From: an uncultured delta proteobacterium
GTDB lineage: Bacteria > Myxococcota > Myxococcia > Myxococcales > Myxococcaceae
DNA length: 64,000 bases
NCBI GenBank assembly: GCA_963771175.1
Contig: CAVYSY010000024.1
Coordinates: forward strand, 96,001 to 160,000
Reading direction: 5' to 3'
Part shown: piece by piece, positions 29,096 through 49,468 of the stretch
Position numbering within the stretch: position 1 is the first letter of the stretch
Layout: each line of letters opens with the position of its first letter
Made by a program: the position numbers and the translations under genes
The notes under the pieces: model-generated
Seen by the model: only the letters and a program-made list of their open reading frames with translations
Told to the model about the DNA's origin: nothing
Database searches by the model: none

Positions 29096-29607
29096 GCAAC
29101 TGTGACAACAAGAGGCGGATCCTCGTCATCGACGATTCCGAGGCCATCCACACGGACTTCCGCCGGATCCTCTGCTCGGAGCAGCGCAAGGGTCAGGACG
29201 ATCTCGACCTGTTGGAAGAGGCGCTCTTCGGCACGGCTCCCTCTCGCGGCGATTCCTCCAACGATCCGGAGTTCGAAGTGGATTCGGCATTCCAGGGACA
29301 GGAGGGGCTTACCAAGGTCCGGGCGGCCCTGGAGACGGGCCAGACCTACTCCCTGGTCTTCCTCGACTACCGGATGCCGCCCGGCTGGAACGGCGCCGAG
29401 ACCCTACGGCGCCTGCGGCAGGTGGCTCCCTCGCTGCGGGTGGTGCTCTGCTCGGCCTACTCCGACTACTCCTGGGAGTCGATGCTCAAGGAGTTCGGCC
29501 AGTCCCAGTTGCTGAAGGAGCTGCGAAAGCCTTTCAACGGCCAGGAAGTGCGCCAGTTGGTGCACAACCTCACCGCGCAGCAGGGCGGCTCTCACGCGCC
29601 GGCGTGA
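29092..29607 (+). CDS. Single-domain response regulator (receiver with acidic insertion)
   Basis: VIDD, FLDYRMPPG, CSAY and KPF motifs. ATGA overlap with the kinase. Confidence 0.88.
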   Translation: MSNCDNKRRILVIDDSEAIHTDFRRILCSEQRKGQDDLDLLEEALFGTAPSRGDSSNDPEFEVDSAFQGQEGLTKVRAALETGQTYSLVFLDYRMPPGWNGAETLRRLRQVAPSLRVVLCSAYSDYSWESMLKEFGQSQLLKELRKPFNGQEVRQLVHNLTAQQGGSHAPA

Positions 29608-31972
29608 GCCAGTAGCGCTGACGCTGGAAGGGATAGGTGGGCAGGGTGACCCGACGCCGCGCATACGGGGCGTCGTAGGCCGCCCAGTTCACCTCCACGC
29701 CCCTCACGTACAGCCCGCCCAGCGTCTCCAGGATACGAGGCCACTCCGCACGAAGCTCCAGGCACACGTCCACGCCGTGGGCCTTCAGCACCTTCTCCGC
29801 CTCTTCCCACTGCGCCGCCTGCTGCCCTCGCGCCCTGCGCCAGTACTCCTCCTGGCTCGCCTCCGCTCCGGGCGCCGTCCCACTCTCCGCGCTCACCAGC
29901 AGCACCTTCGGCACCGCGTACGGCCCCTGCTTCCCCGGCTTGCCCACCGCCAGTCTCAGCCCCTCCTCCAGGCTGAACACTCCCGCCTCCACTCCCGCCA
30001 CGTACTCCCCTACTCCCTGCCCCACCACCGCCCTCGGCTCCACTCCCCACTCCCTCCACATTCGCGCCTGCGCCCACTCCAGCGCGAACACCGCCGCCTT
30101 CCCGTATCCCTCCTCCTTCAGCAGCGCTGACTCCTCCCCGTACAGCACCTGCTCCAGCCGCTTCTCCAGCACTCCCTTCAGCCCCTGCGCACACCTCTCC
30201 ACTGCCTCCCTGAACGCAGGCTGCGTCTCGTACAACTCCCTCCCCATTCCCGCGTACCGCTCTCCCTCTCCTCCGAATACGAAGGCCACCTTCGGCGCCG
30301 TGGCCCCCGTCCTCCCCGCCACCACTCCCTCCACCTCTCGTCCGCTCGCCGCCGCTTCCAGCCTCTCTCGCACCTGCTGCGCGCTGCCGCCCACCACCGC
30401 CAGTCGGTGCTCGAAGTGCGCCCTTCCCGTCGCCGCCGTGAAGCACACGTCTCCCACCTCCGCTCCGCCCTCCGCCAGCGCCCGCGCGTAACGGCCCGCC
30501 TGCACTCGCAGGGCCTCCGCGCCGCGCCCCGATACCACCAGCACGTGCTCCGGCCTCTCCACCTCCCGCGTCCGCACGGGCATCGACGGCGCCTCCTCCA
30601 ACACCACGTGTGCCAACGTGCCGGTCCTCCCGTACGAGGTCACTCCCGCGATGCGCCGGCCCTGCGTCGGCTCCCACGGCGTCAGTTCCACCGGCACCTT
30701 CACCCCCATCCCCTTCCAGTCGATGTTCGGATTGGGTTGCTTCAGATGCAGGTGCGCCGGCAACTGCTTGTGCTGCATCGCCAGCACCACCTTCATCATT
30801 CCCACCACGCCCGAGGCCGCCTCCGGGTAGCCGAGGTTCGTCTTCACCGAGCCCATCCACAGCGACTCCCCGCCCTTCCTCCCCTCCTTCAGCACCGACC
30901 ACATCGCCTCCGCCTCGATGGGGTCTCCCAGCGCCGTCCCCGTGCCGTGCGCCTCCAGGTAGCTCACCTCGGCCGGTGACACTCCCGCGCCCTGCAATGC
31001 CTGTCGGATGACGGATTGCTGTGCCACCCCATTCGGCACCGTGAACGAGCTGCTCGGGCCGTCATGCCCCACCGCCGAGCCTCGAATGACCGCCAGGATG
31101 TTGTCTCCCTGCGCCTGGGCCTCCGACAGCCGCTTGAGCACCAGCACGCCACAGCCCTCGGCTCGCCCGAACCCATCCGCCGAGGCATCGAAGGTCTTGC
31201 AGCGTCCGTCCGCCGAGAGCGCCCCGCTGCAGGAAAGATAGACACTCACCTCCGGCGAGAGGATGAGGTTCACCCCCGCCGCCAGCGCCACCGCGCACTC
31301 GCCGTTCCGCAAGCTCTGGCAGGCCAGGTGCAGCGCCACCAGCGACGACGAGCACGCCGTGTCCACCACCAGGCTCGGCCCCTGAAAGCCAAACAGATAC
31401 GACAGCCGCCCCGAGATGGCGCAGTTCGCTCGCGCGCCAATGAAATACGGGTCGATGCCCTCCAGGCCCCCCGCCTCCAGCGCGAGCTGCCCGTAATCGT
31501 TGTTCATCGCCCCCACGAAGACGCCCACCCGCTCGCGCCGGCCTCGCTCCACCGCGTGTCCGGCCCGCTCCAGGGCCTCCCAGGCCACCTCCAATACCAG
31601 CCGCTGCTGCGGATCCATGCTCTCCGCCTCGCGCTGCGAGAGGCCGAAGAACCGTGCGTCGAACCGGTCCACGTCCTTCAGGAAGCCGCCCCGCCGAGTC
31701 CGCATCCTCCCCTTCGCCTGGGGATCCGGATCGTAGAAGGCCTCCGCGTCCCAGCGCTCCGGGGGAACCTCGCTGGTGGCATCCACTCCCTTCACCAGCA
31801 GGTCCCAGAGGGCCTCCGGGCTCTCCACTCCTCCGGGTAGCCGGCAGGCCATCCCGATGAGCGCGATCGGCTCGCGACGGGCGGCCTCGGCCTGCTCCAC
31901 CCGCGCCTCCAGCTTGCGGATCTTCACCAACTGCTGCTGCAGCAGTTGGCGATAGTTGATTTCCTCGGACAT
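29570..31972 (-). CDS. Type I PKS gene 3: docking domain, variant KS, inactive AT; no ACP or TE
   Basis: DTACSSS and HGTGT are intact, but KTNLGYPEAASG replaces GHLE. The AT remnant has GQGVGE. The protein ends just after YPFQRQRYW. Confidence 0.9.
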   Translation of the reverse strand: MSEEINYRQLLQQQLVKIRKLEARVEQAEAARREPIALIGMACRLPGGVESPEALWDLLVKGVDATSEVPPERWDAEAFYDPDPQAKGRMRTRRGGFLKDVDRFDARFFGLSQREAESMDPQQRLVLEVAWEALERAGHAVERGRRERVGVFVGAMNNDYGQLALEAGGLEGIDPYFIGARANCAISGRLSYLFGFQGPSLVVDTACSSSLVALHLACQSLRNGECAVALAAGVNLILSPEVSVYLSCSGALSADGRCKTFDASADGFGRAEGCGVLVLKRLSEAQAQGDNILAVIRGSAVGHDGPSSSFTVPNGVAQQSVIRQALQGAGVSPAEVSYLEAHGTGTALGDPIEAEAMWSVLKEGRKGGESLWMGSVKTNLGYPEAASGVVGMMKVVLAMQHKQLPAHLHLKQPNPNIDWKGMGVKVPVELTPWEPTQGRRIAGVTSYGRTGTLAHVVLEEAPSMPVRTREVERPEHVLVVSGRGAEALRVQAGRYARALAEGGAEVGDVCFTAATGRAHFEHRLAVVGGSAQQVRERLEAAASGREVEGVVAGRTGATAPKVAFVFGGEGERYAGMGRELYETQPAFREAVERCAQGLKGVLEKRLEQVLYGEESALLKEEGYGKAAVFALEWAQARMWREWGVEPRAVVGQGVGEYVAGVEAGVFSLEEGLRLAVGKPGKQGPYAVPKVLLVSAESGTAPGAEASQEEYWRRARGQQAAQWEEAEKVLKAHGVDVCLELRAEWPRILETLGGLYVRGVEVNWAAYDAPYARRRVTLPTYPFQRQRYWLTPARESRPAAR
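29755..30975. repeat. Near-identical ~1.2 kb duplicate of ~35080-36300 (KS C-terminus plus inactive AT)
   Basis: Long identical runs, e.g. CTCCAGGCACACGTCCACGCCGTGGGCCTTCAGC, occur at both loci. Confidence 0.9.
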
Positions 31973-47800: not shown

Positions 47801-49468
47801 ATGAAGGCCAGGCGCGGCGGCTCGCGGGTGTCCCCCGTGAAGAGGCCCGGACGGCGCCGGCCCTGCCTCAGGGCCTTGAGCTGCGCGGCCAGCTCCGCGC
47901 GAGTGCGGAACGTGAGGGCCGCGCGGTGACGCCCCTTCCCCACGTGCGGGGCCCAGGTGCGGCACAGGTCGCGCACGCACACCGGGTCCTCCTCGTGCAG
48001 CACCAGCGCCTCCGCCTTCGCCGCCTGGGCCAGCAACTCCTCCTCGGTGGCCGCCGCCAGGGGCAGCAGCTCATCCCGTCCCACCGGCGACTCCTCCAAC
48101 ACCACGTGGGCGTTGGTGCCGCCCCAGCCGAACGCGCTCACGCCCGCCGTCGCCGGCTCGTCCTCGCTGGGCCACGGCGTCAGCTTCTGCGGCAGGCTCA
48201 GCCGCAGCTCGCCGAAGGGGATGCGCGGGCTCACCTCCCCATGCATCAGGTGCGGCGGCACCAGCCGGCGCGACAGCGACAGCGCCACCTTGATGAGCCC
48301 GGCGATCCCCGCCGCGCCCTCCAGGTGCCCGATGTTGGCCTTCAGCGAGCCGATCATCAGCGGCCGATCGATGGACCGGCCCTCGCCGAGCGCGGCGCCC
48401 AGGGCACTCGCCTCGGTGGGGTCTCCCAGCGCCGTGCCCGTGCCGTGCGTCTCCACGTAGTGGACGCGGCTCGGGGGCACACCGGCGCGCGAGTACGCCT
48501 CGCGCAGCAGCGCCGCCTGTCCGGGCACGCTCGGGGCGGTGAGCCCGTTGCCCGTGCCGTTGTTGTTCACCGCGCTGCCGCGGATGATGCAGTAGATGTG
48601 CGCGCCCGACGCGAGCGCGGCCGATAGCGGCTGGAGCACCACCAGGCCCGCGCCCTCGCCCCGGCCGAACCCGTCCGCGCTCGCGGCGAACGCCTTGCTC
48701 CGGCCGTCCGGCGACAGCCCGCCGAACTTGGACAGCAGCACCCCCGACTCGGGCGAGAATATCAGGTTGACGCCACCCACCAGCGCCATGCGCGGCCTCG
48801 CCGCTGCGCAGGCTCTGGCAGGCCAGGTGCACCGCCACCAGCGACGAGGAGCACGCCGTGTCCACCGTGAGGCTGGGGCCGCGCAGCCCCAGCACGTACG
48901 AGAGCCGGTTGGCCACGATGTTGAGCGACTGGCCCGTCGCGCTGTGCAGCGTCACCGCCGCGTGCTCGCTCAGGTGCCGGTCCGCGTACTCGTGCCAGAT
49001 GGTGCCCATGAACACGCCCGTGCGCGAGCCCTTCAAGCTCGCCGCCGACACGCCCGCGTCATCCAGCGCCTCCCAGCACACCTCCAGCATCAGCCGCTGC
49101 TGCGGATCCATCTCCGCCGCCTCGCGCGGCGAGATGCCGAAGAAGAGCGGATCGAACCCGCTCACCCCATCCAGGAAGTACCCGTGCCGGACGCTCATCT
49201 TCCCCGGCGCCTGGGGATCCGCGTCGTACCAGGCGCTCATGTCCCAGCGATCCGCGGGCACCTCGCGCAGCAGATCCTTCCGCTCGCACAGCAGCTTCCA
49301 GAACGCCTCGGCATCAGGTGCCCCTGGGAAGCGACACGCCAGCCCCACCACCGCGATGGGCTCCGACTCCCGACCTCCCTGCCCCGCCCGGCTCTCCCCC
49401 ACCAGCTCCTGCTCCGCCTTGTCCGCGGAGCGGGAACCGAGCCCCGGCTGGATCTCGCTTTCCGTCAT
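41797..49468 (-). CDS. Type I PKS gene 1: KS-AT(inactive)-AT(methylmalonyl-type)-DH-ER-KR-ACP (frameshift ~48792)
   Basis: KS DTACSSS/HGTGT/GHLE. AT1 GHGVGE; AT2 GHSMG/VASH. DH HRVQGTILLP; ER HSAAGGLG; KR GGLGGLG with LDD; ACP GLDSLM. Confidence 0.93.

Follow-up and report, generated by a model that had tools for sequence, protein, structure and literature searches.

A thioesterase-less cis-acyltransferase polyketide synthase of the Myxococcaceae, probably of the bgc34 type, ending in a conserved Cys-His-Tyr ketosynthase

How does a modular polyketide synthase (PKS) begin, feed and end its chain when it has no loading acyl carrier protein (ACP), no thioesterase (TE) and, in three of its five acyltransferase (AT) domains, no active-site serine? 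The question is raised by a locus of an uncultured delta proteobacterium of the Myxococcaceae (GenBank assembly GCA_963771175.1), analysed here within a window of 64,000 nucleotides (contig CAVYSY010000024.1, positions 96,001 to 160,000, forward strand), to which all positions refer unless another locus is named. Three genes, here called g1, g2 and g3, encode the synthase. Taken together, the evidence is best explained, and we think probably so, by a conserved, TE-less type I PKS with its ATs in cis, resembling the bgc34 cluster of Archangium violaceum SDU8, in which a terminal ketosynthase (KS) would mediate release of a fatty acid and the frameshifts of the window copy would be errors of assembly.

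The PKS region consists of five open reading frames (ORFs; Table 1), which amount to three genes because two frame breaks interrupt them: comparison with orthologues places one extra A in the first KS (KS1) of g1 and another in the module-2 AT (AT2) of g2, neither of them in a homopolymer run. Pfam matches across these ORFs, with E-values from 1e-16 to 1e-137 that lie far past chance, give the order KS-AT0-AT-DH-ER-KR-ACP / KS-AT-KR-ACP-KS-AT0-DH-KR-ACP / KS*-AT0 (AT0, serine-less AT; KS*, altered KS; DH, dehydratase; ER, enoylreductase; KR, ketoreductase). The GTG start of g2 overlaps the TGA stop of g1, and g3 could begin either at an overlapping GTG or at an ATG 12 nucleotides further on; the ATG is the likely start, since translation from it begins as in the orthologues (MSEEINY). 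Domain order and junction overlaps thus agree with a preliminary description of this DNA, which had read three tightly coupled minus-strand genes with this domain string from the letters. Its statement that a loading ACP and TE, reductase and condensation domains are missing was likewise borne out by Pfam on the PKS ORFs, and the 41 flanking ORFs gave no match to any of the last three either.

Related loci, taken from a genome scan with g3 and then mapped by tblastn, indicate that this layout is shared. Standalone proteins of 727–824 amino acids, 63–82% identical to g3, were found in three genera (Archangium lansingense, A. minus, A. gephyra, A. violaceum and A. primigenium, Vitiosangium, and Cystobacter fuscus). 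Every one of the 12 Archangiaceae loci long enough to reach the g2–g3 junction contains it, and g2 comes after the end of g1 in all 10 that extend far enough to show this; Archangium, Cystobacter and Vitiosangium each have the three-gene unit, and orthologues of g1 include proteins of Vitiosangium, A. violaceum, C. fuscus and Melittangium boletus. A check for syntenic copies in the Archangiaceae, proposed earlier, therefore found the unit, with g2 uninterrupted in eight of ten related loci. Additional downstream modules in relatives had been named as the sign of a truncated relic; in the nine loci with a readable downstream flank there was no PKS or TE gene beyond g3, and the layout is therefore native and not a truncation. 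A hidden TE or further downstream module is ruled out for these nine loci, and a truncated relic by the g2–g3 junction in 12 of 12 loci together with purifying selection on g3.

The AT and KR motifs read in the preliminary description (VASH, HAFH, W and LDD) were confirmed in the translations and in the orthologue alignments, as was its count of three dead ATs among five: the first AT of module 1, the AT of module 3 and the AT of g3 are all serine-less. AT2 is the sole malonyl-type AT of the synthase, and its motifs are present in the window and in all eight continuous g2 orthologues. KR2 carries the W motif and KR1 and KR3 carry LDD, while all three ACPs have the serine. The active-site motifs of DH1, ER and KR1 are kept in 12 of 12 g1 sequences, and across these and nine g2 sequences the reductive-domain and ACP motifs examined are retained, except for the LDD of KR3 (seven of nine). 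The AT remnant of module 3 has no serine in any of nine sequences, its motif being GQG in three, ARG in two and GLG, GRG and GHG in one each. In C. fuscus Cbf 10 (locus L009, about 7060–7094) the remnant is wholly deleted, nothing there corresponding to residues 1383–1612 of the downstream ORF of the window's g2, so that this module is truly AT-less.

An unusual component is the protein at the end of the line, g3. Its KS keeps Cys211 and His346 but has Tyr386 for the second catalytic His; when it is aligned with PDB 7zma, both KS domains of that structure show the NIGH histidine at this position. The altered last KS that had been noted before is thus a Cys-His-Tyr enzyme. All 11 g3-type sequences have Cys-His-Tyr, with Tyr386, whereas the paralogous module-3 KS has His; among the 120 best g3 homologue hits, the 19 that carry Tyr are all standalone or partial g3 orthologues. 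For other PKSs, the background was drawn from a representative search that returned only giant multi-KS proteins; their 150 top proteins held 558 KS domains, 530 of them scorable, with His in 524 and Tyr in none. A full-text literature search found no paper on a Cys-His-Tyr ketosynthase, and NCBIfam gave g3 no specific name, its scores lying far below cut-off. The AT of g3 reads GQGVGE and matches its profile only at positions 2–116 of 319.

Selection on g3 was assessed from pairwise ratios of non-synonymous to synonymous substitution (dN/dS; 36 pairs from nine orthologues), which were 0.04 for the docking helix, 0.17 for the KS, 0.44 for the linker, 0.36 for the AT stump, 1.18 for the stretch in place of the small subdomain and 0.31 for the post-AT linker. 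By this measure the terminal KS is evolving under purifying selection, and part of the AT stump drifts near-neutrally in comparison with the strong constraint on KS and docking helix; the sequences suggest that the AT stumps of this PKS are dispensable scaffolds. The N-terminal helix of g3 is highly conserved, and so is the C-terminal tail of g2, which is nearly invariant behind a variable spacer, with its final 21 residues common to most orthologues. An AlphaFold model of g3 (mean predicted local distance difference test, pLDDT, 85.5; predicted template modelling score, pTM, 0.86) places a helix at residues 3–36 ahead of a KS-AT-like fold, for which the closest structural match is the CurL KS-AT didomain (template modelling score, TM, 0.89).

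A further feature of g3 is a tract, nucleotides 1423–2231 of the gene, that is 97–100% identical per 90-nucleotide window to the module-3 copy, against about 53–97% for the remainder of g3. Overall DNA identity between g3 and module 3 is 85.7% in the window versus 78–82% in four relatives. On this pattern the tract of ~800 nucleotides is attributed to gene conversion private to the window's lineage; it takes in the linker and the AT stump and ends short of the Tyr codon. The invariant Tyr, the constraint on KS and docking helix, the drifting stump, the loss of the module-3 stump in C. fuscus and the conversion tract together single out the terminal KS for mutation.

A published cluster of the same make-up indicates what such a synthase may produce. 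Zhang, Hu et al. (Nat Commun 2026;17:8074; PMC13454183) describe bgc34 of A. violaceum SDU8, a cluster of about 40 kb encoding three PKS proteins, in which module 1 has two ATs, module 3 is without an AT and a terminal KS takes the place of a TE. Once a constitutive promoter had been set in front of its first PKS gene, expression in a Myxococcus xanthus chassis brought up a new peak at 254 nm; of the three branched unsaturated fatty acids obtained, one was known and two were new (PMC13454183). The window likewise encodes three PKS proteins, with tandem ATs in module 1, a line that ends in a KS instead of a TE, and a module 3 without functional AT, of which the window and its relatives keep a serine-less stump only and the C. 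fuscus Cbf 10 locus keeps none; the hosts belong to the same bacterial family. They differ in species, and the window copy has its two frame breaks and its private conversion tract. Proteins of A. violaceum are 82–86% (g1) and 76% (g3) identical to those of the window. Compared with bgc34 by description, and with A. violaceum through the orthologues of g1 and g3, the window locus is probably a bgc34-type PKS, a judgement that we make jointly with the rest of the explanation given at the outset. The preliminary description did not recognise the architecture as that of a characterised cluster; this view is not supported, as a cluster that shares the three peculiarities, bgc34, has since been expressed and has yielded isolated products (PMC13454183). 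The general chain shape anticipated for the window, a methyl-branched, unsaturated acyl group, fits the branched unsaturated fatty acids reported (PMC13454183).

The form in which the chain would leave is another matter. The preliminary description had the 5-hydroxy-2-enoyl thioester of an uncharacterised minimal PKS departing by closure to a delta-lactone or dihydropyranone, and some features agree with this: KR2, an active W-type domain, leads one to expect a 5-hydroxyl, a TE is absent, and lactonisation by a KS is on record for NghhA and suspected in EbeG (PMC12291444). The matching bgc34, however, gave free branched unsaturated fatty acids (PMC13454183), and in the window the LDD-type KR3 is followed by a DH3 whose catalytic His and Asp are intact. 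By the usual rule, reduction by an LDD-type KR followed by dehydration gives an E-olefin, and an E-2-enoyl chain would be unable to close onto its 5-hydroxyl. Both the free acids and the expected E geometry therefore leave the delta-lactone without support, and we regard this outcome as very improbable. One might speculate that the 254 nm peak would fit a conjugated dienoic acid, formed through loss of the 5-hydroxyl.

The chain would begin on g1. All 11 orthologues of g1 that were examined are 2511–2580 amino acids long and begin with the KS, and an ACP ahead of KS1 is absent in 12 of 12 g1 sequences. StiA of stigmatellin and MxaF of myxalamid biosynthesis likewise have a KS followed by tandem ATs, of which the second is of the VASH type and shares 62.5% (StiA) and about 62.6% (MxaF) identity with the active AT of g1. 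StiA and MxaF differ in having an N-terminal loading ACP and a GHSIGE first AT, and g1 has neither. Judged by these alignments, g1 looks like a mixed loading and extension module after loss of the loading ACP and of the serine of its first AT. KS1 would then be primed directly by an acyl thioester, the former loading-type AT being without serine and small subdomain. The nucleophile position of this first AT is Gly in 12 of 12 g1 sequences. The sequence around the dead, shortened domain is strikingly well kept across the same 12 sequences, and this conservation suggests a retained, non-catalytic role; the domain may be kept for starter recognition instead of as a mere scaffold. A fatty-acid-CoA-ligase-like AMP-binding enzyme encoded beyond g1 is a possible activator of the starter.

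Extension can be followed from the motifs. Module 1 would add methylmalonate and reduce it fully, leaving a methyl branch, and module 2 would add malonate, with the W-type KR leaving a hydroxyl. Since module 3 has only an AT stump, its ACP (ACP3) must be malonylated in trans, most likely by AT2 on the same polypeptide; and since bgc34 yields its product in a heterologous host, any helper would have to lie within the roughly 40 kb of bgc34 or be supplied by that host. Acyl_transf_1 had no match among the 41 flanking ORFs that would indicate a discrete AT, and a trans-AT PKS is ruled out by this result together with the two live ATs in cis. KR3 and DH3 would then give a 2-enoyl chain. The motifs of DH3 are non-canonical yet conserved, with HxxxGxxxxA in place of a final P and GYTLGSGY in place of GYxYGPxF.

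For release, we propose that the conserved docking pair brings the chain to Cys211 of the fourth KS (KS4), which has no ACP. KS4 would be unable to run a decarboxylative condensation because Tyr replaces the second catalytic His; instead it would hydrolyse the acyl-enzyme, with His346 acting as general base, and so free the chain as an acid. The model for this step is CalA3 of the calcimycin PKS (PDB 7wvz), an ACP-less release module. As described in PMC10006239, its KS forms an acyl-cysteine that undergoes amidation or hydrolysis, the first histidine serving as base, whereas its AT, DH and KR are inactive scaffolds. The two proteins are alike in having a docking domain, a KS with active Cys, an inactive AT, no ACP and the last place in the line; CalA3 takes the chain from the ACP of the previous protein and then releases it, and by analogy the same role is proposed for g3. 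KS-catalysed release is also described for NghhA and suspected for the TE-less ebelactone PKS, which ends in a KS (PMC12291444). The trans-AT KS0 domains and the terminal KS of EbeG resemble the g3 KS in keeping the cysteine while condensation is not expected of them. KS0 domains of trans-AT systems usually lack the histidine of the HGTGT motif, whereas g3 keeps that histidine and has Tyr in place of the other. A special kinship of g3 with CalA3 was looked for and not found: 7wvz stands behind CurL, DEBS and Lsd14 by sequence and at rank 39 by fold. We propose that g3 works like CalA3, but it lies outside the CalA3 family.

An alternative is that g3 does not hydrolyse at all, and that its KS either serves only as a gatekeeper on which the chain waits or transfers the chain to an acceptor encoded elsewhere, such as CoA, a lipid head group or an ACP, the acids being shunt products or released by the host. 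The genes upstream of g1 on the same strand, for a CoA-transferase-SCP2 fusion and for the ligase-like enzyme, would suit such a fate, and CalA3 favours an amine acceptor over water (PMC10006239); hydrolytic activity of g3 is itself an argument by analogy. Yet the acids were obtained from bgc34 with promoter exchange only (PMC13454183), and the downstream flank varies among relatives, with no conserved partner. We consider this alternative doubtful, and hydrolysis by g3 remains the step that we favour.

Several points nevertheless weigh against the explanation as a whole. The equation with bgc34 rests on architecture and on the A. violaceum orthologues. The class of products 7–9 of that cluster fixes neither the use of all three modules nor the starter. 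Hydrolysis by g3 is drawn from analogy, and a host thioesterase or spontaneous hydrolysis could free the acid. CalA3 keeps Cys-His-His as well as an inactive DH and KR, and mainly forms an amide with 3-hydroxyanthranilate, whereas g3 has Cys-His-Tyr and an AT stump only; neither in sequence nor in fold is g3 closer to CalA3 than to the KS-AT didomains of DEBS and CurL. Finally, one inserted base each breaks g1 and g2, and if these insertions are real this copy is dead.

The last point leads to the reading that the cluster is decaying or dead in the window strain, its dead ATs, altered KS and two frameshifts being stages of pseudogenisation. The insertions in KS1 and AT2 do lie outside homopolymer runs, and the deposited protein set holds a truncated g1 ORF of 2330 amino acids, so that the breaks belong to the deposited assembly. 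Against decay, neither the dead ATs nor the Tyr-KS is recent; both are old and conserved, with KS4 constrained as described above, and g2 is one continuous ORF in eight of ten related loci. The two others, L007 (Archangium gephyra PVMSAZ) and L023 (Cystobacter fuscus NCWS), carry many breaks; both are single-contig, and their g2 breaks are typical of uncorrected long-read assemblies. Elsewhere in the window a third HAMP histidine kinase paralogue is split over three frames, and it is either a pseudogene or the site of two more assembly indels; with it the 64 kb contain at least four breaks, and this makes assembly error the likelier cause. The two PKS frameshifts are thus more likely assembly errors than real lesions, and decay of the locus appears unlikely.

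The flanks add some context. The response regulator and the CaiB-type gene that had been reported at the two sides of the PKS genes were both found (Table 1). In eight of the nine loci with a readable flank the array of HAMP kinases and regulators follows g3, directly in seven and past one inserted gene in L005 of Archangium minus (12409–14952), where a gene for an 847-amino-acid protein with GMC-oxidoreductase domains lies on the same strand between g3 and the response regulator. Copy number in the array varies among relatives (L003–L012), with one to three kinases and one or two regulators. The C. fuscus locus L009 is without the array at this position and has instead genes for HipA, GmrSD and HEAT-repeat proteins and an M4 peptidase downstream. 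For the CoA-transferase and the ligase NCBIfam gave no specific name, with scores far below cut-off, and a promoter and terminator scan of 49300–53600 gave nothing above chance.

Table 1. Positions of the PKS genes, their domains and neighbouring features in the window
Feature	Position	Strand	Remarks
Five PKS ORFs, spanning 29570–49468	48071–49468, 41797–48789, 38699–41800, 31981–39762, 29570–31984	−	
g1	41797–49468	−	KS1-AT0-AT1-DH1-ER-KR1-ACP1; KS at the very start, no loading ACP
Extra A in KS1 of g1	48789		
First AT of module 1 (AT0)	47065–47838	−	GHGVGE, serine-less; small subdomain short by ~72 residues
Active AT of module 1	45811–46737	−	GHSMGE and VASH (methylmalonyl-type motif)
DH1	about 45612–44791	−	Pfam
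ER	about 43959–43072	−	Pfam
KR1	about 43008–42475	−	LDD motif
g2	31981–41800	−	KS2-AT2-KR2-ACP2-KS3-AT0-DH3-KR3-ACP3
AT of module 2 (AT2)	39199–40135	−	GHSVGE and HAFH (malonyl-type motif)
Extra A in AT2 of g2	39703		
AT remnant of module 3	34918–35610	−	GQGVGE, serine-less
DH3	about 34827–33973	−	Catalytic His and Asp retained
KR3	about 33225–32689	−	LDD-type
g3	29570–31984	−	N-terminal docking helix, KS4, linker, AT remnant, post-AT linker, stop; no ACP
Likely ATG start of g3	31972	−	
Tyr386 codon	30827–30829	−	Replaces second catalytic KS His
Gene-conversion tract in g3	29754–30562	−	Module-3 copy at about 35075–35883
Response regulator	29092–29607	+	Convergent with g3, overlaps end of g3; first gene of the array
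HAMP-kinase/regulator array	24311–29607		Two HAMP histidine kinases at 24311–29095
Third HAMP histidine kinase paralogue	11766–13975	+	Split over three frames, breaks near 11906 and 13415
Family III CoA-transferase (CaiB-type)	49799–51445	−	N-terminal SCP2 (lipid-binding) match; 330 nucleotides upstream of g1; cluster membership putative
Fatty-acid-CoA-ligase-like AMP-binding enzyme	53481–55178	−	Best NCBIfam match FadD11, well below cut-off

With the architecture and the product class in print, discovery of the cluster is itself no longer new. The interest of the locus is mechanistic, and lies in the loading of an AT-less module in a cis-AT line, a start without a loading ACP and a release without a thioesterase; dispensability of AT stumps would also be useful for PKS engineering. 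More tentatively, the standalone Cys-His-Tyr KS with its AT stump could form a new class of dedicated off-loading enzyme, distinct from CalA3, that either hydrolyses the acyl-cysteine or passes the chain to an acceptor missing from the heterologous host. If such an acceptor is indeed missing there, the free acids would be shunt products and the real product would be something else, such as a lipid or a CoA ester.

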